Origin: Thermohalobaculum sp.
GTDB taxonomy: Bacteria; Pseudomonadota; Alphaproteobacteria; Rhodobacterales; Rhodobacteraceae
Direction: 5' to 3'
Length of the DNA: 64,000 nt
NCBI GenBank assembly: GCA_965263335.1
Contig: CBDHHE010000009.1
Span: forward strand, 28,645-92,644
Below, in pieces: positions 35,331 through 47,648 of this stretch. The notes beneath the pieces were generated by a model. The model had not been told where the DNA came from. It made no database searches and saw nothing but the letters and a program-made list of their open reading frames with translations. The first letter of the stretch is position 1; each line of letters begins with the position of its first letter. Position numbers and translations under genes: made by a program.

Positions 35331-36136
35331 GACGTGACCGCGTCGCAGATGACGAGATTGACCTCTGCCGCCGCCAGCCGGGCGCAGATCGCGTCGGGCG
35401 GTCGTGTGTCGCAGATCACATGTTCGACGTCCGTGATGTTGCCGCTGCGTGCATGCGCCTTGCGCCCGAACTTTGTGACATCGAGCACGAGGATGCGGGT
35501 GGTCGCGTTGCGTGAGATCGCCTCGCGCGAGCGGACGTCTTCGTCCGACAGGTCAAGCAGACCGCCGTCCTCATCCACCGCCGCCACGCCAAAGAGCCCC
35601 ACGTCGAACTTGTAGCTGTCAAAGAACGCCACGGCCGAGGGGCCAACGATGTCGGCCTCTGACTCGCGCAGCGTTCCACCGGGGATCGTGACCGTCGCGC
35701 CGTCAAAGCGGTGCGCCGAAATGGCAAGGTGCAGGTTGTTGGAGTAGATGCGCAGGTTCTTCCGCTGCGCCAGGGCGGCCACGGCCATTTCGGGCGTTGT
35801 TCCGATGGAAACGGCCAGCGCGGTGTTGTCGTCGATCAACTCCGCAGCCTTTTGCCCGATTCTTTGCTTGGCCGAGAGGTTCAGGATGCGCCGCAATTCG
35901 TAGTGATCAGCGTTCACTGTCGCCAACTCGACCCCGCCATGCACGCGGCGCAAGAGCCCCCTTTCGCACATGTCGTTGATATCTTTGCGGATTGTCTGCG
36001 TGGAGACCGCGAACATCCGGGCGAGCTCGTCCACCTTCGCGCTGCCGTTGGCGCGGACCAGCTCGGCGACCTGCGCCTGCCGGTCGGTGCACCAGCTTGG
36101 GGTTTGAAACAGAGGAGACTGCGGCTCAGCTTTCAT
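35327..36136 (-). CDS. DeoR/GlpR family transcriptional regulator
   Basis: LARMFAVSTQTIRKDI HTH, RVHGG, and AKQRIG..IGTT motifs. Confidence 0.92.
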   Translation of the reverse strand: MKAEPQSPLFQTPSWCTDRQAQVAELVRANGSAKVDELARMFAVSTQTIRKDINDMCERGLLRRVHGGVELATVNADHYELRRILNLSAKQRIGQKAAELIDDNTALAVSIGTTPEMAVAALAQRKNLRIYSNNLHLAISAHRFDGATVTIPGGTLRESEADIVGPSAVAFFDSYKFDVGLFGVAAVDEDGGLLDLSDEDVRSREAISRNATTRILVLDVTKFGRKAHARSGNITDVEHVICDTRPPDAICARLAAAEVNLVICDAVTS

Positions 36137-36193: not shown

Positions 36194-37384
36194 TTACGGC
36201 CGCGCTTGTTTGATCGCCGTTTCGACTAGCGATTGAATATCCTCGACCGTGGCAGCGCGGGGATTGGTGGCCGCGGCGCTATCTTGGATGGCCTTGCCCG
36301 CGATACGTGCCGCACAATCCGGCGGGACCCCGATGGCACTGAGGGATTTTGGGATGTCGATCTCGTCCAGCTTGCGTTCAACCTCGGCGATGAATGCTGG
36401 CGCGGACTTGTCCGCAAGCCCCATCACATCGGCCATCCGGGTCACTTTCTCCGGCATGCCCGGCAGGTTGTAGCGCAGCACCACTGGCAGGACGATCGCG
36501 TTCGTCAATCCGTGTTGGGTGTCATATTCCGCCCCGACCATGTGCGAGATGGCGTGCACAAGGCCGAGCCCCTTCAGAAACGCGATGCCAGCAAGACACG
36601 ACCCCACCAGCATGCCCCCCCGGGCCACCATGTTGTCGGGTTCTTGCACGGCGACGGGAAGCCATTTTGAGACGAGGCTCAGCCCCTCCAGCGCCAGCCC
36701 ATCACAGAGCGGATGAAAGCCCGGCACCAGATAGGCCTCGATCGCGTGGGTCATCGCGTCCGCGCCGGTCCAGGCCGTCAGGTGCGAGGGCAGGCTCAGC
36801 GTCAAGGCCGGGTCAAGCAGCGCAAGCGACGGCTTCAGGTCTGGGTGCCAGACACAGAACTTCATGCCCTTGGCGACGTGGGTCACCATCGCGGTGCTTT
36901 CCGTCTCGGCCCCGGTCCCGGCGGTGGTTGGAACCGTAATCAGATGTGGGAAGGGCTGGTGCGGCGGGATGGCTGGCACGGATTGTTCGAATTCAAAGGC
37001 CCAGAGATCGATGTCGTTCCGCGCTGTCAGACAAATGGATTTGCCGCCATCCATGGCGCTGCCCCCGCCGATGGCGATGACCGCGTCGTGGCGCCCGTCG
37101 CGGAAGGCCTGCCGCCCCGCGCCAATCTCATCGTCGCGCGGATTGGGGGAGATGTCATGGAAGAGATCAAACCCGAGCCCGGCCTTGGTCAGACTGTCTT
37201 TGAGTTGCGCGACAAAGGGCAAGTCAACGCTGGCGCGGTCGGTGACAATGAGAGGTCGCGAGATCTGCAGTGCCCGACACCGTGCGCCAATCTCGTCCAG
37301 CCGCCCCGGCCCATAGGCAATCGGGACGGGAAAGCTCCAATCCTGCGCATCAAGGATGTTGTGGTCTTGCGGCGCATGTGCCAT
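36194..37384 (-). CDS. Iron-containing alcohol dehydrogenase
   Basis: GGGSAMD, PTTAGTGAE, DAMTHAIE, GLVHAISH and HGLTNAI motifs. Start MAHAPQ at 37384. Confidence 0.92.
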   Translation of the reverse strand: MAHAPQDHNILDAQDWSFPVPIAYGPGRLDEIGARCRALQISRPLIVTDRASVDLPFVAQLKDSLTKAGLGFDLFHDISPNPRDDEIGAGRQAFRDGRHDAVIAIGGGSAMDGGKSICLTARNDIDLWAFEFEQSVPAIPPHQPFPHLITVPTTAGTGAETESTAMVTHVAKGMKFCVWHPDLKPSLALLDPALTLSLPSHLTAWTGADAMTHAIEAYLVPGFHPLCDGLALEGLSLVSKWLPVAVQEPDNMVARGGMLVGSCLAGIAFLKGLGLVHAISHMVGAEYDTQHGLTNAIVLPVVLRYNLPGMPEKVTRMADVMGLADKSAPAFIAEVERKLDEIDIPKSLSAIGVPPDCAARIAGKAIQDSAAATNPRAATVEDIQSLVETAIKQARP

Positions 37385-37427
37385 GTCGTTCGTCTTTCCC
37401 ATTACGCGGCAGGCTGGTTCAGGCCCG

Positions 37428-38315
37428 CTATGTTTTGACCACCTCAACGACGGCGGCACTTACGATCAGGACCGCCCCGATCCCCTCGCGGATCCCGAAG
37501 GGCTCACCCGCGAAGATGGCGGCTGTGATCAGCCCGACGACCACCTCGCTCATCAACAGCAGGCCCACCCTTGCGGGGGGCAGATAGGTGGCGGGCCAGA
37601 TGGTGAGAAACAGCATCGGGATGATGTAGATGACCGACAGGGCGGCAAAGGGTGTCATCGCCACCAACGTGCCGGTGTCCAGCGCGACATCGCTGTTGAG
37701 GTGCGCCGGCAACAGGCTTGCCACTGAAACCAGCAGCGCGCCCATCACAAAGGCCATGACCTGCCCCGGCGCGGAAATGCCGCTGGCCCTGTACAGCCCG
37801 AGTGTCCCGATGGCCCAGGTGATCCCAGAGATAAGCGCCAACCAGTCGCCAAAGTTCTGCGGCAGGGGAAGTTTTGAGCCGCCACCCAGCACGACCAAGA
37901 GCCCGCCGACACCCAGCATCAGGCTGAGCATGCGCCCCCATGTGAGCCGTTCGCCCAGAAACGCAAGGCCCAGCAACGTGCCCCAGATCGGCGTCAGGTA
38001 AAAAAGCAGGATGGAGCGCACCACGTCCGTGTACCCAAGGCTTGTGGTAAAGAGGCTGAACGCCGCGCCCGTGAACATGCCGCTGAAGACCAGTGTGCGC
38101 CAGTTCGCCACAAAGCTTTGACGGTCGGGCCAGAGGAGTGGCAGAAGCGCCAGAATGGTCGCCGCGTACATGACAATGCCGGGCCAGGGACCGGGCAGCC
38201 CCTGTTCAGAAAAGAACCGGACCGGGATCCAGTAGAGCCCCCACATGGCGCCGCCCATGACCAAAGCGATGCTCGCCGAGGATGGGGTCAGTTCCGGGAG
38301 CCTGAGATGCCGCAT
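37428..38315 (-). CDS. DMT/EamA family transporter
   Basis: About 10 TM segments, WGLYWIP, LFYLTPIW and FAGEPF motifs. Confidence 0.87.
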   Translation of the reverse strand: MRHLRLPELTPSSASIALVMGGAMWGLYWIPVRFFSEQGLPGPWPGIVMYAATILALLPLLWPDRQSFVANWRTLVFSGMFTGAAFSLFTTSLGYTDVVRSILLFYLTPIWGTLLGLAFLGERLTWGRMLSLMLGVGGLLVVLGGGSKLPLPQNFGDWLALISGITWAIGTLGLYRASGISAPGQVMAFVMGALLVSVASLLPAHLNSDVALDTGTLVAMTPFAALSVIYIIPMLFLTIWPATYLPPARVGLLLMSEVVVGLITAAIFAGEPFGIREGIGAVLIVSAAVVEVVKT

Positions 38316-38329
38316 TCAGTTCATGGCTT

Positions 38330-40381
38330 TCAGAGGCCCAAGGCGCGTTTGCGTTCTTCGGCAAAGCCCTGCACCAGCCGGTCGGCCACAAGCGCGAGGA
38401 TCGCCATCGCCGCGCCAGCGGTGATGCCCAGCCCGACATCAGCCTTGCCAAGCGCCAGATAGATCGACTGGCCCAGGCCCGTTGTCCCGATCAGCGCTGC
38501 GATCACCAGCATGGCGAAGGCATAGAGGATCGTCTGGTTCAGCCCGAGCAGGATGGTGGGCACGGCATAGGGCGCGCGCACCTCCACCATCGTCTGCCAG
38601 GGTGTCGCCCCGGATGTTGTCGCGGCGTCCAGCAGCTCTTGCGGTGTCGTCGAGAGCCCGTGTTGCGTGTAGCGGATCATCGGCACGATGGCGTAGGCGC
38701 AGATTGCCAGAAAGGCCGAGAACTCTCCGATCTGGAAGAACATCAGCACCGGGATCAGGAATACAAAGAGTGGGATGGTCTGGAGCATGTCGCAGATCGG
38801 TCGGACCATGCGCCACGCCATTGGGCTGACCGCGCACAAAAGCCCGATGGCCATGCCGATCACGGCGCAGAAGAACACGGATATCCCCACCAGATAGAGC
38901 GAAAGCAGCGCCCTGTCCCATAGCCCCGAGATCAGGATCGCGCCCAGCATCAGCAGCACGAAAATCACCATGCTGCGCCCGCCTGACATCCAGCCCAGGG
39001 TCGCCGCACCGGCCAGCACGAAGAGCCAGGGCAGTTCAGAGATCCCCGTTTCGGTGATGATGGTGAAGCAAAGCAGCAGCCCACCGGCCAACAGATGCCC
39101 CCGCCAGACCAGACCGGCGGCCACGGCGATGGTGATGCCAAAGAGCCAGAGGCTCATGCTGCCTGTCCACTGGAAGCCCCATGTGAAGGCAAGCACCGCG
39201 TTGTCGAGCCCGATCCGAAGCGGCAGGAACAGATAGAACATGATCGCGTTCTTGAACGCATCCAGCGCCGCGCCATGCGTGGCCGTGAAGGCACCAAGGC
39301 TGGTGTCGACCCATGCCGCAACGGGGGCAAACAGGTCGAAATCCTCCGCACCCGGCAGGCTCTGCCACATCGCCAGCGCAAGAAGCGCCGTGATCCCCAG
39401 AATGGCGTAGACCCCGCGCAGATCGAAGCGTTTGCGGGTCCGCGCCATTTGCGCGCTCATCCTGTCGATGACCATCGCGAAGACAACGATCACAAGCCCC
39501 GCAAGCAGGCTTTGCCCGAACTGCGCCTTGCGCATGGTCAGCAGGACTTCCCATCCGATATCGTTAAAGCCGCCGATCACCGCCGCAATGATCACCATCG
39601 ACAGCGCCGCCATGAGGCTTTGATTGACGCCCACCATGATCTGGGTCGTGGCCGATGGCAGTTCGACCAGAAAGAGCTGTTGCAGACGCGTGCCCCCGCT
39701 CATGACCGCGGCTTCCTTGATGTCATGATCGACCCGTTCGAGCCCGAGCAAGACATTCCGCGCCATCGGCGGTGCGGCATAGATGGCAGAGGCAATCAGG
39801 CCGACCACAGGTCCGAAGCCAAACAGCAGAAGCAGTGGTGTCAGATAAGCGAAGGTCGGCACGGTCTGCATGACGTCGAGCACCGTCAGCAGCGCGCTGC
39901 GGACCTTGGGGGATTCGTAAGCCATAATGCCAATGGCCCCACCGCCCAGAACCGCGAGCGGAACCGACACTGCAACAAGGGCCAGCGTGTTCATGCTTTC
40001 GACCCAGTAGCCCGATGCGAGCACCAGCGACAGACCGACAAGTCCCAGAAGCGCCATGCGCAGGCCGCCAATGTACCACCCGATGGCGGTCACAATGCCG
40101 ATGGTGATCGGCCACGGGGTCGAGACCAGCGCCATGTTCGCCCAATACATCGGGTATTCCATCAGGAAGGAGAACCCGCGTGCCACGGGTTTGATCGCCT
40201 CAAGCAGCCACGTCAGGCTGGTGCCGATCCAGTCGCTGACCGGGAGCTGAAGCGCGGCTGGCCATGTGAAGAGCCATGGCGACACCGGTTCGAGCACAAG
40301 GCAAACCAGGCCCACCAGCGCGGTCAGGCACGCCAGCGCCCCGGCAGGGTTGCGCAGAAGATATTGGCGGAGGGCGCTCAT
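38330..40381 (-). CDS. Glycine betaine/proline-type ABC permease with duplicated ProW domains
   Basis: Two copies of the ProW core: DVMQTVPTFAYL..GVNQ and DMLQTIPLFVFL..GLNQ. Confidence 0.9.
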   Translation of the reverse strand: MSALRQYLLRNPAGALACLTALVGLVCLVLEPVSPWLFTWPAALQLPVSDWIGTSLTWLLEAIKPVARGFSFLMEYPMYWANMALVSTPWPITIGIVTAIGWYIGGLRMALLGLVGLSLVLASGYWVESMNTLALVAVSVPLAVLGGGAIGIMAYESPKVRSALLTVLDVMQTVPTFAYLTPLLLLFGFGPVVGLIASAIYAAPPMARNVLLGLERVDHDIKEAAVMSGGTRLQQLFLVELPSATTQIMVGVNQSLMAALSMVIIAAVIGGFNDIGWEVLLTMRKAQFGQSLLAGLVIVVFAMVIDRMSAQMARTRKRFDLRGVYAILGITALLALAMWQSLPGAEDFDLFAPVAAWVDTSLGAFTATHGAALDAFKNAIMFYLFLPLRIGLDNAVLAFTWGFQWTGSMSLWLFGITIAVAAGLVWRGHLLAGGLLLCFTIITETGISELPWLFVLAGAATLGWMSGGRSMVIFVLLMLGAILISGLWDRALLSLYLVGISVFFCAVIGMAIGLLCAVSPMAWRMVRPICDMLQTIPLFVFLIPVLMFFQIGEFSAFLAICAYAIVPMIRYTQHGLSTTPQELLDAATTSGATPWQTMVEVRAPYAVPTILLGLNQTILYAFAMLVIAALIGTTGLGQSIYLALGKADVGLGITAGAAMAILALVADRLVQGFAEERKRALGL

Positions 40382-41442
40382 TTGGCTTCGACCTGCAACG
40401 AGGCCGCAGCCAGATCGCTTGGGTAGACGGCGCCCACCAGATTGCCCGCGGCGTCGCGCACCGGGACGGCGGCATAGAGATCCATGCAGGAGGCCAGCGC
40501 CGCTTCGAGCGTCATGTCGGTGCGCAGACCCGGGTCATCCGTCATCTCGGCAGGCACATCCGTTCCCGTTTTCATGACCGAGGCTACGCGCGCATGGCGA
40601 CCGGTTGCGACGTCCTTCGAAAATTCGGCGACATAGTCGTTGACCGGGTTCAGCACAATCTCGGCCGGTGTGCCGATCTGGACGATCTCGCCGTCCTTCA
40701 TGATGGCGATACGGTCTGCAAGCTTCAGGGCTTCGGTGATGTCATGAGTGATAAAAACGATGGATTTCTTCAGCGTCGCCTGAATGTTCAGAAACTCGTC
40801 CTGGAGTTGGCGGCGGATCAACGGATCGAGTGCTGAAAACGGCTCATCCAGAAACCAGATCTCGGGGTTCACGGCGAGCGACCGGGCAATGCCGACGCGC
40901 TGTTTCTGCCCGCCGGACAGCTCGCGCGGGAAGGCGTCTTCGCGCCCCTCCAGCCCCACAAGTTTCACGACGTCGAAGGCACGCGCCAGCCGCTCGGACC
41001 GGCTCTTGCCCTGCATTTTCAGCGGAAACGCCACGTTTTCGGCGACCGTCATATGCGGAAACAGGCCAAAGTGCTGAAACACCATGCCCAGCTTGTGGCG
41101 GCGCAATTCGATCATGCGCTTTTTCGACGCCTTGAGGATATCTTCGCCATTCAGGGCGATTTCCCCTGCCGTTGCTTCGAGCAGGCAGGAGATGGCGCGG
41201 ATCAGGGTGGACTTGCCCGAACCGGAGAGCCCCATGATCACGAACAACTCGCCTTCGGCCACATCGAACGTGGCGTCCTGCACCGCCGGTATCAAACCTT
41301 CGGCGCGCAGATGATCAGCGGCCCCCCGGGAGGAGCCGCCAGTTTGTTCCAATGCCTGCGACAAACGGTGTTGGGCATTGTCGCCAAACACCTGCCAGAC
41401 GCCCCTGCAGGAGATTGCAGGAGCCGGGGACCTGTCGTTCAT
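40378..41442 (-). CDS. Betaine-type ABC ATP-binding protein (ProV-like)
   Basis: IMGLSGSGKST, LSGGQKQRVG, DEPFSALDPLIRRQLQDE motifs and a CBS-like tail. Confidence 0.93.
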   Translation of the reverse strand: MNDRSPAPAISCRGVWQVFGDNAQHRLSQALEQTGGSSRGAADHLRAEGLIPAVQDATFDVAEGELFVIMGLSGSGKSTLIRAISCLLEATAGEIALNGEDILKASKKRMIELRRHKLGMVFQHFGLFPHMTVAENVAFPLKMQGKSRSERLARAFDVVKLVGLEGREDAFPRELSGGQKQRVGIARSLAVNPEIWFLDEPFSALDPLIRRQLQDEFLNIQATLKKSIVFITHDITEALKLADRIAIMKDGEIVQIGTPAEIVLNPVNDYVAEFSKDVATGRHARVASVMKTGTDVPAEMTDDPGLRTDMTLEAALASCMDLYAAVPVRDAAGNLVGAVYPSDLAAASLQVEAK

Positions 41443-41454
41443 GGCCGGAAACCC

Positions 41455-42405
41455 TTAGTTGGTTGCCGCGTCAACAACCGGTTTCCACTTGGCTTCATTG
41501 TCGGCCATCCATGCCGCGACAACCTCTTCGACCGCGCCGCCATCGACGTCAATGGCACCCATCATCGGCTGCTGGTCCGCAACATCGAGCGTGTAGTTCG
41601 ACAGGATCTCAAAAGCTGCTGGCCATTTCTCTTCCATACCAGCCCAGCCTGCCTTGAAGATGCGGGTGGCCGAGAAGTCGCAGTCATGCGTGGCATTCGG
41701 GTTCGCGCCCCATGCCGGATCGCTGAAGCACGCGTCGTTCCCGACAGGCAGATCCACGAATTTCACGTCATAGGCCGACATCGCCCAATGCGGTTGCCAG
41801 AAGACGATCAGAAGCGGGGATTTCTTTTCGGTCGATGCACGCAGTTCGGTGATCAGCGCCCCTTCCGACCCCGCAGGCACAGCCTTGAACGGCAGATCGA
41901 AGCCGGTCATGCGGTCCGCGCCGGGCGTTCCCCAGTCAGCGGGATAGTCGACGAGACGCCCGTTCGGAATGGTCTCAGCGGTGGCGAATGCCATGGCGCA
42001 GTCCTGCAACGCTTCCCACGCCGGAAGGCCCGGGCACAGCTCTGCCACATGCGCGGGGTAGGCAATGCCTTCCTTTGCATCAAGCTCAAGATCGCCAAGC
42101 TCGACAACGGTGCCCGCTTCGACCTTCTTGGCATAGTCTTCGGACACGTTGGACGACCAGATCTCCATCGCGCCGTGAATTTCGCCATCGGCCATGGCCT
42201 GGTACATGTTCATGTAGCCCGCCGTCACGTATTCCACCTGATAGCCTGCGGCTTCCAGCATGGCCCCCGCGACATGGGTGGACACATGTTGCCCGGTCCA
42301 TTCGTTGACAGCCAGCTTGATCGGCTCGTCAACGGCACCCAGATCGGCGGCCCATGTGGCGGTCGATGCAAGGCCAGCGGCCAAGGTTGTGGTCAGAAGT
42401 TTCAT
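41455..42405 (-). CDS. Betaine-family ABC substrate-binding protein
   Basis: Signal peptide from MKLLTTT, NEWTGQ, EIWSSN and FWQPHW motifs. Confidence 0.88.
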   Translation of the reverse strand: MKLLTTTLAAGLASTATWAADLGAVDEPIKLAVNEWTGQHVSTHVAGAMLEAAGYQVEYVTAGYMNMYQAMADGEIHGAMEIWSSNVSEDYAKKVEAGTVVELGDLELDAKEGIAYPAHVAELCPGLPAWEALQDCAMAFATAETIPNGRLVDYPADWGTPGADRMTGFDLPFKAVPAGSEGALITELRASTEKKSPLLIVFWQPHWAMSAYDVKFVDLPVGNDACFSDPAWGANPNATHDCDFSATRIFKAGWAGMEEKWPAAFEILSNYTLDVADQQPMMGAIDVDGGAVEEVVAAWMADNEAKWKPVVDAATN

Positions 42406-42557
42406 TTTTCGTCTCCCTGAGTTTCTGTTTTTCTGCATTGTAAAGTTCCGTTGTAAAAAATAAACGAACAAATTATACAAGCCCTATTCTCTATGCTGTC
42501 ACTGACGCTGCGCTAAGCAAAGCACGGCAGGACTAAAAGGGACTTTGGGGAGGGAAA

Positions 42558-43976
42558 ATGCAAACCAAAATGCTGATCAACGGCGCGCTTGTTGAAGGAA
42601 ACGGGGACGCGCTGCCGGTTTTGGACCCATCAACAGGCGAAACTGTCGCGCAGGTTCGCGAAGCCACCCCGGAGCAGATCGAGGCGGCTGCGGTCGCAGC
42701 CCATGACGCATTCGAGACCTACCGATTTTCCACACCGGCTGAGCGCGCCGGGCATCTGCTCGCTATTGCTGATGTTCTGGAAGCGAACATCGAAGAGTTG
42801 AGCGAGCTTGAGACCCTGGATGTTGGCAAGCCCTGGCCAATGGCCCGCGATGAAGAAATGCCGCTGACCATCGACACGTTCCGCTTCATGGCGGGTGCGG
42901 CGCGGACACAATCCGGCTCGGCAACGGGCGAATACGTGGCCGACCACACCTCGATGATCCGCAAAGACCCCATCGGCCCGGTGGCATCCATCGCGCCGTG
43001 GAACTATCCGCTGATGATGGCAGCCTGGAAGATCTCGGCCCCGCTTGCGGCGGGATGCACCATGGTCCTGAAACCGTCCGAGATCACGCCGCTTGCGACG
43101 TTGCGCCTTGCAGAACTGCTGGCGGATGTGCTGCCGAAGGGTGTTTTCAACGTGATCCACGGGCGCGGCGCGTCGGTGGGGGATGCGCTGATCAATGACC
43201 CACGGATGGAGGGCATTTCGATCACCGGCTCGCCGGCCACCGGCATGGCTGCGATGCGCGCGGCGTCAAACCAGATCCGGCATGTACACCTGGAACTGGG
43301 CGGCAAGGCCCCGGTCATCGCCTTTGACGACTGCGATGTGGATGCGCTGGCCGAGACCGTCAGGTACGGCAGCTTCTTCAACGCGGGCCAGGATTGCGCC
43401 CAGCCTTGCCGTCTGCTTGTGCAGGATGGTGTCTATGACAAGGTCGCGGCGGCGGTGTCGGAACAGGTCGGTCAGGTCAAGATCGGCGCGCCCAAGGCTG
43501 AGGGCACCGAAATGGGACCCATCGTCTCGGCAGTGCAGCGCGAACGTGTTGCGGGCTTTGTGGATCGTGCGCGAGGCGGCGCCGAAATCACCGTCGGCGG
43601 CGCGATCGGAGAAGGCAGTGGCTTTTTCTACCAACCCACGGTGATCGCAAATGTCGACAACAACGCCGAGATTGCCTGCAGCGAGGTGTTTGGCCCGGTG
43701 GTGACACTGTCGCGCTTCAAGGATGTCGACGACGCCTTGCGCATTGCCAATGCGAGCCCGTATGGCCTTGCCGCGTCGGTCTGGACCAAAGACCTGTCAA
43801 CCGCGATGCGTGCAACGGCGCAGCTGCGCTACGGCATGACCTGGGTCAATACCCATGGTGTTCCGACGGCCGAAATGCCTTGGGCCGCCATGAAAGGATC
43901 CGGCACCGGCTGCGACATGAGCGTTTACGCGCTGGATGCCTATACATCGGTGCGCCACGTCATGATCGCGCATTAG
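42558..43976 (+). CDS. patD: Gamma-aminobutyraldehyde dehydrogenase (YdcW/PatD-like ALDH)
   Basis: PWNYPLMMAAWK, LELGGKAP, NAGQDC, EVFGPV and SVRHVMIAH motifs. Confidence 0.85.
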   Translation: MQTKMLINGALVEGNGDALPVLDPSTGETVAQVREATPEQIEAAAVAAHDAFETYRFSTPAERAGHLLAIADVLEANIEELSELETLDVGKPWPMARDEEMPLTIDTFRFMAGAARTQSGSATGEYVADHTSMIRKDPIGPVASIAPWNYPLMMAAWKISAPLAAGCTMVLKPSEITPLATLRLAELLADVLPKGVFNVIHGRGASVGDALINDPRMEGISITGSPATGMAAMRAASNQIRHVHLELGGKAPVIAFDDCDVDALAETVRYGSFFNAGQDCAQPCRLLVQDGVYDKVAAAVSEQVGQVKIGAPKAEGTEMGPIVSAVQRERVAGFVDRARGGAEITVGGAIGEGSGFFYQPTVIANVDNNAEIACSEVFGPVVTLSRFKDVDDALRIANASPYGLAASVWTKDLSTAMRATAQLRYGMTWVNTHGVPTAEMPWAAMKGSGTGCDMSVYALDAYTSVRHVMIAH

Positions 43977-43989
43977 TGCGGAGCGGGAC

Positions 43990-44610
43990 GTGCCCAACCA
44001 TCACAAGGCGCAGGCGCTTGAGACGACGGTTGATCGGGATGTGGTCGAGGCCACGCGGCTGGATCCGCGGCTGGGGGAAGAGATCAGGTCGCTTCGCAAG
44101 GCGCGCGGACTGACATTGGATGCTCTGGCACGGGCCACGCATCTGTCGGCCGGATTTCTCAGCCAGATCGAACGGGGTCAGAACCGCCCGTCGGTCAATG
44201 CGCTCTTCGACATTAGCCGCACGCTGGGTGTTTCGGTCGGCTGGTTCTTTGCGACCGAGGCGCAGGCAGGCGTGCAGCAAGGCCCCGTGGTGCGTCAGCG
44301 CCAGCGGCGCGTCATCTCGTTCGAGGATGGCATACGCGACGAATTGCTGACCCCCGGTTTGACGGGCAAGCTGGAGCTGCTGTCCTGCATCTTTCCACCC
44401 GGAAGCGGCGTTGACATGGAATTCGCCCATTCCGGCGAAGAAGCCGGGGTTGTCATTCGAGGGGCGCTCGAACTTTGGGTCGACGGCGTGAAGCACCATC
44501 TCGCGGAAGGCGACAGCTTCAGCTTTGACAGCAGCCTGCCCCACAAGTTTCGCAATCCGTCTGCACGCGAGGCCGAAGTGATTTGGGCGATCACGCCCCC
44601 GAGTTTCTGA
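43990..44610 (+). CDS. XRE-family regulator with cupin domain (PuuR-like)
   Basis: LSQIERGQNRPS HTH and HSGEEAG..HKFRN cupin motifs. Confidence 0.88.
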   Translation: MPNHHKAQALETTVDRDVVEATRLDPRLGEEIRSLRKARGLTLDALARATHLSAGFLSQIERGQNRPSVNALFDISRTLGVSVGWFFATEAQAGVQQGPVVRQRQRRVISFEDGIRDELLTPGLTGKLELLSCIFPPGSGVDMEFAHSGEEAGVVIRGALELWVDGVKHHLAEGDSFSFDSSLPHKFRNPSAREAEVIWAITPPSF

Positions 44611-44730
44611 GGTTGGCGCAGGGGCGGAACGGTCCCGTGAGCCTTGGGTCCGGATCATCTCTGGCAAAATTGCCAGCTTGAAGTGGACGGGCTCTTTGGC
44701 ACACTCTGCCCTGAAAGCAGGAGCATTGTG

Positions 44731-45867
44731 ATGACCAACTGGAAAGATCTTGAATTCGACACGGACACGATCATCGACGGGCTCAAGCCGTGGGTGGAAT
44801 GCGAAAGCCCGACATGGGATGCGGCGGCCGTGGATCGCATGATGGATCTGGCGGCGGTCAAATGTGCAGAGCTTGGCGCGCGTGTGGAACGCATTCCCGG
44901 CACGATGGGCTTGGGCGGATCGGTCAGGGCAAGTTTTCCCCACCCGAAGCAAGGTACACCGGGCATCATGATCACAGGGCACTTTGACACGGTGCATCCG
45001 ATTGGCACGTTGGCCGCCAATCCGTTTCGCCGTGAAGACGGGAAGGTGTTCGGACCGGGCATTCAGGACATGAAAGGCGGGAACTTCATCACGCTGGAAG
45101 CCATTCGGGCGCTGCAGGACGCGGGCATTGAAACGCCCCTGCCCATCGTCGCGCTCTTCACACCAGATGAAGAAATCGGGACGCCATCCACGCGAACACT
45201 GATCGAAACGGAAGCCAAACGGTCGAAATATGTGCTTTGCCCCGAGCCGTCACAAGACGGTAACGGCGTCACCACGGGGCGCTACGCGATCGCACGGTTC
45301 AATCTGACGGCCGAAGGCACACCGAGCCATGCAGGCTCAAATCTCAAGGCCGGAGTATCCGCAGTGCGCGAGCTTGCCCGGCGGATCATCGAGATCGAAG
45401 AAATGACGACCGATGACTGCACATTCTCTTGCAACAATATCGCGTCCGGACAATGGGTGAATTGCGTCCCGTCTTTTGCCCGCGCAGAATGTCTTTCGAT
45501 GGCGAAAAAGCAGGCCGATCTCGATGCAGGCGTTGAAAGAATGCTCGCACTGACAGAAGAGCGCAATGGCGTGACCTTCACGGTCACGCGCGGCGTGACC
45601 CGCCCTGTCTGGGAACCTGAATTGCCGGGGACCATGGCGCTGTATCAAAGGGCCAAGGAGATCTCTGAAGCCGTGGGCCTGGACATGCCCCATGCCAGCC
45701 AGGGCGGCGGGTCCGATGCCAATTTCACGGGCGCACTTGGCATCCCGAGCCTCTGTTCAGTCGGCGTCTTGGGCAACGGGCTTCATACCCTGAACGAACA
45801 TATCGAAGTGGACATGATTGTCCCGCGAACCCGGATCATGGCTGGGCTTCTATCGACCCTCGAGTAG
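44731..45867 (+). CDS. M20 family metallopeptidase/deacylase
   Basis: GHFDTVHP, GPGIQDMKGG, DEEIGT, GGGSDANF and HTLNE motifs. Confidence 0.9.
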   Translation: MTNWKDLEFDTDTIIDGLKPWVECESPTWDAAAVDRMMDLAAVKCAELGARVERIPGTMGLGGSVRASFPHPKQGTPGIMITGHFDTVHPIGTLAANPFRREDGKVFGPGIQDMKGGNFITLEAIRALQDAGIETPLPIVALFTPDEEIGTPSTRTLIETEAKRSKYVLCPEPSQDGNGVTTGRYAIARFNLTAEGTPSHAGSNLKAGVSAVRELARRIIEIEEMTTDDCTFSCNNIASGQWVNCVPSFARAECLSMAKKQADLDAGVERMLALTEERNGVTFTVTRGVTRPVWEPELPGTMALYQRAKEISEAVGLDMPHASQGGGSDANFTGALGIPSLCSVGVLGNGLHTLNEHIEVDMIVPRTRIMAGLLSTLE

Positions 45868-46002
45868 CGCGGCAGCCAAAGGTCCGTCCGTTCCATCGGA
45901 GCTTCCGGCGACAGTGGCGCGAACAACACCGATCCCATCCATTGGTGGCTGCGCAAATTATTGATAGCATGCCCCGAAACCGCGCGGGTCGAAGGAAATG
46001 TC

Positions 46003-47235
46003 ATGAAGCTGTCGGACAAGGAAACAGCAATGCAGGCCGGCGAATTCGGCGCGGCGTGCAAATGGGCCATTGAACATCAGCTGCAGGTCGGCCGGATGTT
46101 TGATGCCGCAGACATGGTCGCGGTGAGCCAGGCGCATATGATGGCGGATCCGGAAAGCCTGGGCGACGCCGGCGTGGCCTTTGTGGAGGATATCGCAAAG
46201 GGCGGCGCAAAGGTGGCCATTCCGATGATCACCGACCCGCGCGGCGTCGATCTGACCTATTACGATCCGCTTGGTCAGACCGAGGAGATGGCCAATCTGG
46301 AACGCCGGTTCATTGCAGCCTGTACGCGGATGGGCATCATGATGACCGACACCTGCATCAACTATCAGACGATCATGCCTCCGGTTCGCGGTGATCACGT
46401 GGCTTATGGCGATACGGGCGTGGTCATCTATTCGAACTCCGTCTGCGGCGCGCGGTCGAACTTTGAAGGCGGCCCCTCGGCACTGGCCGCCGGGTTGACA
46501 GGGCGTACCCCACGCTATGGGCTGCACCTCGACGAAAACCGCCTTGCAACCAAGCGGTTTGTGGTCACGCACCAACCCGAAGATCTCATGGATTGGGGTG
46601 TTCTGGGCGCTACGATCGGGCGCAAATCCGGCAGCTATTGGGAAGTCCCGGTCATCGAGGGGATCGACAAGGCCCCGACCTCGGATCAGATCAAGCACAT
46701 GGGTGCGGCGATGGCGAGCTATGGCTCAACGCCGCTTTTTCACATCGTTGGCATTACGCCGGAATGTCCGACCCTCGCCGATGTGGCAGGCCAACAGTTG
46801 GAACCGGTGACCATATCAGCCCAGGACATTGCAGAGCTTTCCGCACCCTTCGGCGCCAAGGGTGAAAACGTCGATGTGGTGGTCTTTGCCGCACCGCAAC
46901 TCAGTCTGGTCGAGATGGGTCAGGTCGCGGCGCTTTGCGCAGGCCGGAGACGGGCGGACACAACCGACCTGATTGTCTGCACGCCCGCGCAGGTCTACGT
47001 CGATGCCAAGCGGATGGGATACGTCGGTGCCATCGAGGAGTTTGGCGGCAAAGTGCTGACCGGCACATGCTTTTATCAGCAATACGCGCGAGAGATTGGT
47101 GAGGCCAACGGGTGGAAACGGCTCCTGAGCAATTCGGCCAAGATCGTGAATATCCTTGGGGGCTACGGCTACCTCCCCGCGCTGGCCAGCATGGAAGATT
47201 GCGTGGCATCAGCCGAGAAAGGAACGATTGTCTAA
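46003..47235 (+). CDS. Aconitase X catalytic (large) subunit
   Basis: DTCINYQ, YSNSVCGARSNFEGGPSALAAGLTGRTP, FHIVGITPE and NSAK motifs. Confidence 0.9.
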   Translation: MKLSDKETAMQAGEFGAACKWAIEHQLQVGRMFDAADMVAVSQAHMMADPESLGDAGVAFVEDIAKGGAKVAIPMITDPRGVDLTYYDPLGQTEEMANLERRFIAACTRMGIMMTDTCINYQTIMPPVRGDHVAYGDTGVVIYSNSVCGARSNFEGGPSALAAGLTGRTPRYGLHLDENRLATKRFVVTHQPEDLMDWGVLGATIGRKSGSYWEVPVIEGIDKAPTSDQIKHMGAAMASYGSTPLFHIVGITPECPTLADVAGQQLEPVTISAQDIAELSAPFGAKGENVDVVVFAAPQLSLVEMGQVAALCAGRRRADTTDLIVCTPAQVYVDAKRMGYVGAIEEFGGKVLTGTCFYQQYAREIGEANGWKRLLSNSAKIVNILGGYGYLPALASMEDCVASAEKGTIV

Positions 47236-47648
47236 TGGCGCAGATCCTGAAATGCCACGTGGGTATCGGCCCGAACGTGCGCGGCAAAGCCCTTGTCGCC
47301 GATGACAATTTTTCGGCCCGCTACGATCTTGACCGGATCAAAGGGGTGTTCTCGCGTCCCCAGCACAAACTGGCGGGGCAAAGTTACCGTGACGTGATCC
47401 TTGTGCTGAACACCGCCAAGGGGGGTGTCGCAACCGCGTGGATGCTGCATGAAATGACATCGCGTGGCATTGCGCCCAAGGCGATCTTGTTCAATTCGGC
47501 CAACACGATCCTCGCGCAAGGTGCCGCACTGGCAGGGATGGCAATGTGCGACCGTTTCGCTGACGGTGATGTCACCCAGTTGATCGCGACAGGCGACGAT
47601 GTCGAGGTTGACCCACAATCGGGAACGCTCACCATACATAACCGCTGA
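47235..47648 (+). CDS. Aconitase X swivel (small) subunit
   Basis: TAATG coupling. GKALVADD, KGGVAT and PKAILFNSANTILAQGA motifs. Confidence 0.88.
   Translation: MAQILKCHVGIGPNVRGKALVADDNFSARYDLDRIKGVFSRPQHKLAGQSYRDVILVLNTAKGGVATAWMLHEMTSRGIAPKAILFNSANTILAQGAALAGMAMCDRFADGDVTQLIATGDDVEVDPQSGTLTIHNR

Follow-up and report, generated by a model that had tools for sequence, protein, structure and literature searches.

A 64,000-nucleotide stretch of the genome of Thermohalobaculum sp. (contig CBDHHE010000009.1, positions 28,645 to 92,644; called here the window) holds, between its positions 36194 and 47648, genes for the two subunits of an aconitase X (AcnX) next to genes for an ATP-binding cassette (ABC) transporter, two dehydrogenases, a regulator and an M20 hydrolase. 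An earlier note, made from the sequence alone, had read this region as one catabolic island. Searches with Pfam and NCBIfam models found all ten genes where that note had placed them (Table 1). The region is bordered on the left by a DeoR regulator with a sugar ABC operon and on the right by an extracytoplasmic function (ECF) sigma factor. Contigs of ∼95% identity from an independent macroalgae metagenome span the junctions between binding protein and aldehyde dehydrogenase (ALDH), from ALDH through the cupin gene to M20, and between M20 and AcnX, showing that the gene arrangement is real and not an assembly artefact. A low-depth metagenome contig (run X4) joins window position 35785, in the DeoR region, to position 46005, at the start of the AcnX large subunit, with 11 other letters between; this join may be chimeric, or may reflect another gene order in some related organism.

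Table 1. Genes of the region in window coordinates, with the model match behind each identity
Gene product	Coordinates	Strand	Model match
Iron-type group III alcohol dehydrogenase (Fe-ADH)	36194-37459, likely start 37402 or 37384	minus	PF00465 + PF25137
EamA/DMT (drug/metabolite transporter) membrane transporter	37428-38315	minus	PF00892
Fused double ProW-type permease, 683 residues, of a betaine/choline/trimethylamine N-oxide (TMAO)-type ABC importer	38330-40381	minus	two BPD_transp_1 stretches
ProV-type ABC ATPase	40378-41442	minus	TIGR01186, 343 bits (cut-off 327)
OpuAC-family periplasmic binding protein, TmoX-like	41455-42405, open frame to 42480	minus	PF04069, 2.7e-51
ALDH, aminobutyraldehyde dehydrogenase subfamily	42558-43976	plus	PRK13473, 646 bits (cut-off 615)
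HTH_3 + cupin regulator, weakly PuuR-like	43990-44610	plus	PF01381 + PF07883
M20 metallo-hydrolase, PRK07473 group	44731-45867	plus	PRK07473, 620 bits (cut-off 386)
AcnX large subunit, 410 aa	46003-47235	plus	PF04412, 390 bits, 1.5e-116 (cut-off 31.5)
AcnX small (swivel) subunit, 137 aa	47235-47648	plus	PF01989, 78 bits (cut-off 27)

The two AcnX genes overlap as TAATG, the small-subunit ATG and the large-subunit TAA having one base in common, and are translationally coupled. The ALDH gene is divergent from the transporter genes, and the minus-strand row ends with Fe-ADH, whose start is uncertain (37459 GTG, 37402 ATG or 37384 ATG) and which scores under all NCBIfam equivalog cut-offs. The fused permease falls marginally below the cut-off of TIGR03416 (361 against 363 bits); of the PatD/YdcW models, ALDH scores above the cut-off of the subfamily but below that of the equivalog TIGR03374 (570 against 909 bits); and the regulator reaches 75 of the 211 bits set for PuuR. 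The PRK07473 model carries no substrate assignment, and the second-best match of M20 is carboxypeptidase-G2-like. The true ATG of M20 lies at 44731, preceded by AGGAG.

Gene neighbourhoods of the AcnX pair

The surroundings of AcnX were compared at 80 loci from species-representative genomes, with large subunits 74-90% identical to that of the window, drawn from the Roseobacter group, SAR116/Puniceispirillaceae, Filomicrobium and other Hyphomicrobiales, Roseibium and Granulosicoccaceae. These neighbourhoods were rebuilt from the raw loci by open reading frame (ORF) calling, BLAST clustering and Pfam scans of part of the neighbours. A full-length small subunit was recovered next to the large subunit in 78 of the 80 loci, and in none of the 80 did the window's M20, cupin, binding-protein, DMT or Fe-ADH gene lie near AcnX. 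Comparison with the six closest relatives by tblastx detected homology from ∼45976-45994, 10-27 nt 5′ of the AcnX start, to ∼47650; it ended at the stop codon of the small subunit, so that just the AcnX pair is common to the window and these relatives. The two gene positions on either side of the pair fell into 180 protein clusters across the 80 loci, and the neighbours belonged to more than 100 protein families. Lineage-specific arrangements aside, the 76 nearest neighbours without prior annotation matched 82 Pfam families, each at most twice. The pair is also patchily distributed: no orthologue was present in 150 other sampled genera of the same family, and a profile of the clade matched one of 400 other Pseudomonadota genomes.

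The earlier note had proposed a single new pathway for a hydroxylated amine or betaine, and had named a neighbourhood analysis as one way to check it. Run on the 80 AcnX loci, this analysis spoke against the proposal, since the arrangement recurs in none of them, no other lineage has these genes next to AcnX, and the neighbours have separate histories. Nor was any common operator-like sequence found in the three plus-strand intergenic regions. The neighbourhood of the window's AcnX is best read as a recent mosaic, made by rearrangement.

One type of association did extend beyond single lineages. A sister clade was represented by 74 loci from a metagenome scan, mostly soil; at 55-61% identity, both of their subunits show the same signature (see below). 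Where upstream DNA was available, a TctC gene lay on the same strand within 150 nt upstream of AcnX in 32 of 62 sister-clade loci. The listed gaps between the TctC and AcnX ORFs measure 5-41 nt, and in the loci checked (L140, L153) the TctC stop overlaps the start of the large subunit by 4 bp. Other sister-clade loci have, at the TctC position, a gene of the major facilitator superfamily (MFS) or a DctM gene of a tripartite ATP-independent periplasmic (TRAP) transporter, and TctA occurs in 18 of the 80 marine loci. Organic-acid importers are the only association conserved across the marine and soil clades. Among binding proteins, those for terephthalate, glutamate, adipate and aspartate are about equally similar to the coupled TctC.

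Elsewhere, the pair keeps company that changes with the lineage. In Filomicrobium the gene row that includes it also encodes a GntR regulator, an enolase-superfamily enzyme, SdhAB-like proteins and a class-I-fumarase-like enzyme, and in Roseibium and a related alphaproteobacterial metagenome-assembled genome (L007, L008) only 4-5 nt separate it from a PEP-mutase/isocitrate-lyase-family gene that precedes it. Near this AcnX group, a DUF3604 protein (L053, L133, L183 and others) and a GlpD-like FAD oxidoreductase with DAO and DAO_C domains (L038, L039, L046, L179 and others) are the only non-transporter enzymes that recur in both the marine and soil clades.

Clade and active site of the AcnX pair

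Two AcnX reactions are known, dehydration of cis-3-hydroxy-L-proline (C3LHyp) and of mevalonate 5-phosphate, and structures and residue roles have been described for AtAcnX and TkAcnX (PMC8184944). In the same classification, type IIa is bacterial and two-subunit, has two cluster cysteines and shows C3LHyp dehydratase activity (PMC8184944), and subclasses IIc-IIf, bacterial and uncharacterised, have the landmark residues of neither known activity (Watanabe et al. 2021, PMC8184944). The large subunit of the window is nearer to TkAcnX-L (7cnr, 5e-57) than to AtAcnX (7cnp, 7e-36); the best solved match of the small subunit is also TkAcnX (7cnr, 7e-10), and it was aligned to 7cnr_B and 2hi6. Both subunit profiles score above their cut-offs and the small subunit is adjacent and co-translated, placing the pair within the AcnX family.

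A FastTree analysis of 94 family representatives separated 20 rows with the motif 'GDTG', among them the window's AcnX, from 74 rows holding all ES[SN] types, with a support of 100 (SH-like support only). The signature of the 'GDTG' clade comprises [WYFM]GDTG, [SA]APQ, C[FW]Y and a D-x-E loop. The residues at its active site, given below, are invariant in two sets of 80 sequences, 160 in all, one set being the marine orthologues. Searches of the literature, which covered DUF521/DUF126, COG1679/COG1786 and recent work on the aconitase superfamily, turned up no study that characterises the clade. The earlier note's description of a two-subunit AcnX without an assigned substrate holds.

Replacements in the active site were mapped by pairwise alignment to the Tk and At structures, with roles taken from PMC8184944. 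Only Cys118, Cys356 and Lys380 are kept among the 13 active-site positions mapped. The third cluster ligand is lost, Tk Cys283 corresponding to Ala297 and At Cys510 to Tyr358. The Glu-Ser pair which holds the leaving hydroxyl and the carboxylate (At Glu292-Ser293, Tk Glu129-Ser130) is replaced by Asp137-Thr138, and the tyrosine making a water-mediated carboxylate contact (At Tyr534, Tk Tyr365) by Ile384. At Asp203, which binds the ring nitrogen, corresponds to Met47, and At Ile206 to Pro50 (or Asp49). The tail-binding loop, which binds phosphate in Tk, reads H-M-M-A-D49-P-E51-S in the window and H-x-M-A-D49-x-E51-S across the 160 sequences; Gly48, Ser50 and Asn53 of the Tk phosphate loop become Ala48, Asp49 and Ser52, and Tk Asn79, which hydrogen-bonds to Glu and binds phosphate, becomes Asp78. 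In the small subunit, the serine that acts as general base (At Ser70, Tk Ser62(S)) is Gly64(S), within KGGVAT instead of KGST; At Thr72 is Ala66(S), and the residue packing against the substrate (Trp35/Leu27) is Arg29(S). KGGVA[TS] stands in place of KGST in 150 small-subunit orthologues. Cys148 was considered as a third Fe-S ligand and dropped, the position being variable (C/M/Q/F/L/A) in the sister clade.

Measured against the characterised enzymes, the window pair belongs with neither of them. It shares with TkAcnX (type IIb, T. kodakarensis, 7cnr/7cns) the two-subunit architecture and the equivalents of Cys110, Cys342 and Lys361, but it is bacterial, has no mevalonate-pathway context and belongs to a separate clade. 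The three-cysteine [4Fe-4S] ligand set of mevalonate-5-phosphate dehydratase (Tk Cys110, Cys283, Cys342) reads Cys118, Ala297, Cys356, and other residues stand in the phosphate-binding loop and at the Ser62(S) base. With AtAcnX it shares the superfamily fold and the equivalents of Cys273, Cys508 and Lys530 (the last being Lys380), whereas every C3LHyp-contacting residue is replaced (Ser70, Thr72, Asp203, Trp35, Ile206, Glu292, Ser293 and Tyr534) and no hydroxyproline gene context is present. Like type IIa, the pair is bacterial and two-subunit, with two cluster cysteines only. The loss of landmark residues described for types IIc-IIf matches what is seen here, a likeness to the group and not to a single subclass letter. 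On the evidence of the tree and the alignments, the AcnX pair is a member of an uncharacterised clade distinct from both characterised types, with a rewired active site.

The genome holds a second AcnX pair, which is type-IIa-like and falls on the ES[SN] side of the tree (G000, contig C1, 2642611-2643807; L113 8960-10614, minus strand). On the hydroxyproline-dehydratase model NF051439, which has a cut-off of 700 bits, it reaches 410 + 86 bits and the window pair 210 + 29. Judging from its sequence, this second AcnX probably serves a hydroxyproline-type reaction. It adjoins an EutA-like gene of the Asp/Glu-racemase family, a PLP aldolase-like gene and amino-acid binding proteins, and ∼12 kb away, at C1:2629429-2630358, lies a 77% paralogue of the window's TmoX-like binding protein. 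Fusions exist among the family representatives, namely P0173, P0182, P0207 (564 aa) and P0256 (589 aa), and both orders occur: the AcnX-L match is N-terminal and ∼150 further residues follow it, or, like type I, the protein begins with the swivel domain.

Origins of the transporter, dehydrogenase and hydrolase genes

The betaine-type system of the earlier note was borne out, as one of betaine/quaternary-amine type, by the presence of an OpuAC domain, a ProV-subfamily ATPase and a ProW-type permease in a single operon. Among solved structures, the binding protein comes nearest to 4xz6, TmoX with TMAO (E = 1e-58), the TMAO binder of Ruegeria pomeroyi (PMC8918994). The window protein is a paralogue, and not an orthologue, of the TmoX of the TmoXWV importer.

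Orthologues of this transporter were found in carnitine-type gene clusters. Nine genera have binding-protein orthologues 65-84% identical, as well as the ATPase and the fused permease; permease orthologues are 61-79% identical in nine genera other than that of the window and in Shinella. The closest genome (G062) and a Shinella plasmid both have the transporter running divergently from genes for a GlxA regulator, a Rieske oxygenase, a short-chain dehydrogenase/reductase (SDR), BKACE, ALDH, a second SDR and a protein resembling 3-hydroxyacyl-CoA dehydrogenase (HADH). A DMT orthologue (64%) follows the same permease in G062. Between its BKACE and SDR genes, G062 encodes an ALDH that shares 88% identity with the window ALDH; the latter is 70-74% identical to the gene at the same position on Shinella (70%) and Ruegeria plasmids, and it was the sole megablast match to the plasmids. 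In the Thermohalobaculum genome itself, the GlxA-Rieske-SDR-BKACE-SDR-HADH row lies on contig C1 at ∼1889500-1895700 (L239 8537-14719), without ALDH and without transporter. The carnitine-type cluster has thus been split, and the window holds its detached transporter and ALDH. At ∼2.3 kb upstream of GlxA, C1 also encodes a homologue (40%) of the HTH-cupin regulator found in the window.

Taken together, the genes from 36194 to 44610 resemble known systems in part. The Rhodobacteraceae and Shinella carnitine-type clusters hold 61-88% orthologues of the binding protein, ATPase, fused permease and ALDH; in contrast to them, the window keeps ALDH alone beside the transporter, with the Rieske, SDR, BKACE and HADH genes at ∼1.89 Mb on C1, has an HTH-cupin regulator instead of GlxA/CdhR, and carries Fe-ADH and DMT in addition. 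The Pseudomonas carnitine operon caiX-cdhCAB(-hocS), which these clusters resemble, is accompanied by a divergent GlxA-type regulator, CdhR (PMC5806209), and the P. aeruginosa arrangement is alike in having an OpuAC-type quaternary-amine binding protein divergent from catabolic genes. Fe-ADH orthologues (53-74%) lie downstream of paralogous systems of OpuAC binding protein, ProV and fused permease in four genera, directly followed in three of them (G105, G030, G074) by another ALDH; importer, alcohol dehydrogenase and aldehyde dehydrogenase are therefore a recurrent theme. The gene context of the window ALDH points to a quaternary-amine aldehyde rather than to aminobutyraldehyde. This set is best read as an ordinary, uncharacterised quaternary-amine or amino-alcohol module, which would import a choline- or carnitine-like compound and oxidise alcohol to aldehyde and acid.

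The M20 gene has a different distribution. Of 150 genera sampled, 13 have orthologues (59-82% identity), which mostly adjoin paired Dpp-type ABC ATPases; among the genomes sampled none lay beside AcnX or this ALDH. The best explanation of M20 is an amidohydrolase, found in relatives with peptide-type ABC transporters. A perfect 16-bp palindrome, CTGGCAAAATTGCCAG, at 44661-44676, ∼55 nt 5′ of the M20 start and unrepeated in the other intergenic regions, may be an M20-specific operator. Two M20 paralogues, each 64% identical to the window M20, lie within G000:C1:10987-17110 and G000:C10:25853-31976 with identical scores and with an Ldh_2 gene ∼4 kb away in each case; C10 seems to duplicate the beginning of C1, whether as a genuine repeat or through the assembly.

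Proposed functions and alternatives

We consider it probable that three gene sets of separate inheritance have been brought together here in a lineage-specific way, with an orphan AcnX hydro-lyase acting on an imported hydroxy (amino) acid. The AcnX pair (46003-47648) would be a self-contained Fe-S hydro-lyase whose cluster is held by two cysteines and a non-cysteine ligand, and would remove water from, or add water to, a β-hydroxy carboxylate. Lys380 may shuttle protons as in the known AcnX enzymes, with a general base other than the usual serine. The substrate would be an organic acid brought in by tripartite tricarboxylate transporter (TTT), TRAP or MFS carriers, most likely a hydroxy dicarboxylate or a β-hydroxy amino (di)acid; more speculatively, Arg29 could hold a second carboxylate, and the Asp/Glu loop an ammonium group or a divalent metal. 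The product would pass straight into central metabolism, as is suggested by the finding that no partner enzyme is conserved.

Several observations weigh against this reading. The M20-AcnX junction is kept in the ∼95% identical relative from the independent sample, indicating that the arrangement is stable at least at the species level. No terminator was found in the 135-nt gap between M20 and AcnX by a promoter and terminator scan that was uninformative overall, and transcription may read through from M20 into AcnX. ORF calling in the comparison loci was crude. Genes for nitrogen compounds also appear in the surroundings of AcnX in several independent lineages: its neighbours in Puniceispirillaceae are an OpuAC ABC system, ALDH and an arginase-family gene, and in other lineages it is found beside two genes resembling dimethylglycine dehydrogenase (DMGDH), beside a HODM-like N-demethylase with an old yellow enzyme (OYE) and beside a glutamine-synthetase-like gene. 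None of these nitrogen-compound contexts is conserved. The chemistry proposed for AcnX comes from homology only, and its acidic tail loop would suit a cationic group, so that AcnX may yet have an amine link.

The M20 hydrolase and AcnX could instead form a two-step unit, in which M20 frees a β-hydroxy amino (di)acid from an N-acyl or peptide-like precursor and AcnX dehydrates it, the enamine then hydrolysing to a 2-oxo acid and ammonia. M20 is encoded 135 nt upstream on the same strand, and the known bacterial AcnX substrate is a β-hydroxy α-amino acid (PMC8184944). Elsewhere the AcnX pair is found beside M29 (5 loci), γ-glutamyltranspeptidase (3), M16-like, arginase-family and SBP_bac_5 genes, and the TctC coupled to it resembles the Asp/Glu binders BugD and BugE. 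However, the peptidase families differ between lineages, so that the amide- or peptide-cleaving theme may be chance, M20 orthologues are never beside AcnX in the genomes sampled, and M20 is preceded by a palindrome of its own. We regard such a unit as unlikely, with a modest chance of being correct.

A second possibility, which we judge unlikely as well and somewhat harder to sustain, is that the genes form one regulon: the TmoX-like ABC system would import a hydroxylated quaternary amine or amino alcohol, Fe-ADH and ALDH would oxidise it, and AcnX would dehydrate a β-hydroxy acid with a cationic tail, for example interconverting carnitine and crotonobetaine without CoA. All the genes are adjacent in an arrangement kept in the close relative, transporter and ALDH derive from a carnitine-type cluster, the residues at the phosphate-tail positions of TkAcnX are acidic here (Asp49, Glu51, Asp78), and other lineages have AcnX near OpuAC, DMGDH-like or HODM-like genes. 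Yet the arrangement is repeated in none of the 80 orthologous loci, the strongest conserved partner of AcnX is the carboxylate binder TctC, the three intergenic regions share no operator, and the enzymes for the surrounding steps (hydroxylase, carnitine dehydrogenase, BKACE) are on another contig. The acidic Asp/Glu loop, moreover, is equally conserved in soil relatives without amine genes nearby. In a related and rather improbable version, the 'GDTG' clade would carry out a third AcnX reaction, for which it would use a two-cysteine cluster and another general base, and would have been recruited here to the quaternary-amine module, for instance as a CoA-independent carnitine/crotonobetaine or 4-amino-3-hydroxybutyrate hydro-lyase. 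If so, these eleven kilobases would work as one pathway.

It is very improbable that the AcnX pair is no hydro-lyase at all and serves instead in binding or regulation or catalyses some other reaction. One cluster ligand is lost, as is the serine base, and few mapped positions survive, but the residues now in their place do not vary between clades that share only 55-60% identity, the subunits remain translationally coupled, and a tight coupling to solute importers is typical of catabolic enzymes. That the pair is a standard C3LHyp dehydratase, an outcome that the earlier note had named, together with neighbours that are not co-regulated, as refuting its proposal, is scarcely credible and already largely refuted: two-subunit type IIa enzymes with two cluster cysteines do have this activity (PMC8184944), but the score lies far below the model's cut-off, the C3LHyp-binding residues are replaced, the clade is another, the genome has a separate IIa-like pair, and, as that note had observed, neither proline racemase nor imine reductase genes are nearby, the single Pro_racemase gene and the four Ldh_2 genes of the genome being on other contigs.

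For genome annotation, the lesson of this juxtaposition of separately inherited gene sets is a negative one: inferring function from the neighbours in this window alone would mislead, the neighbourhood being a recent mosaic. AcnX is the least understood branch of the aconitase superfamily, with only two reactions known. The group described here is abundant in marine and soil metagenomes, a homologue search giving at least 8000 scored candidates, is very strongly conserved and has lost the family's catalytic serine. The TctC coupled to AcnX in the sister clade offers, through its ligand, a practical handle on the AcnX substrate.

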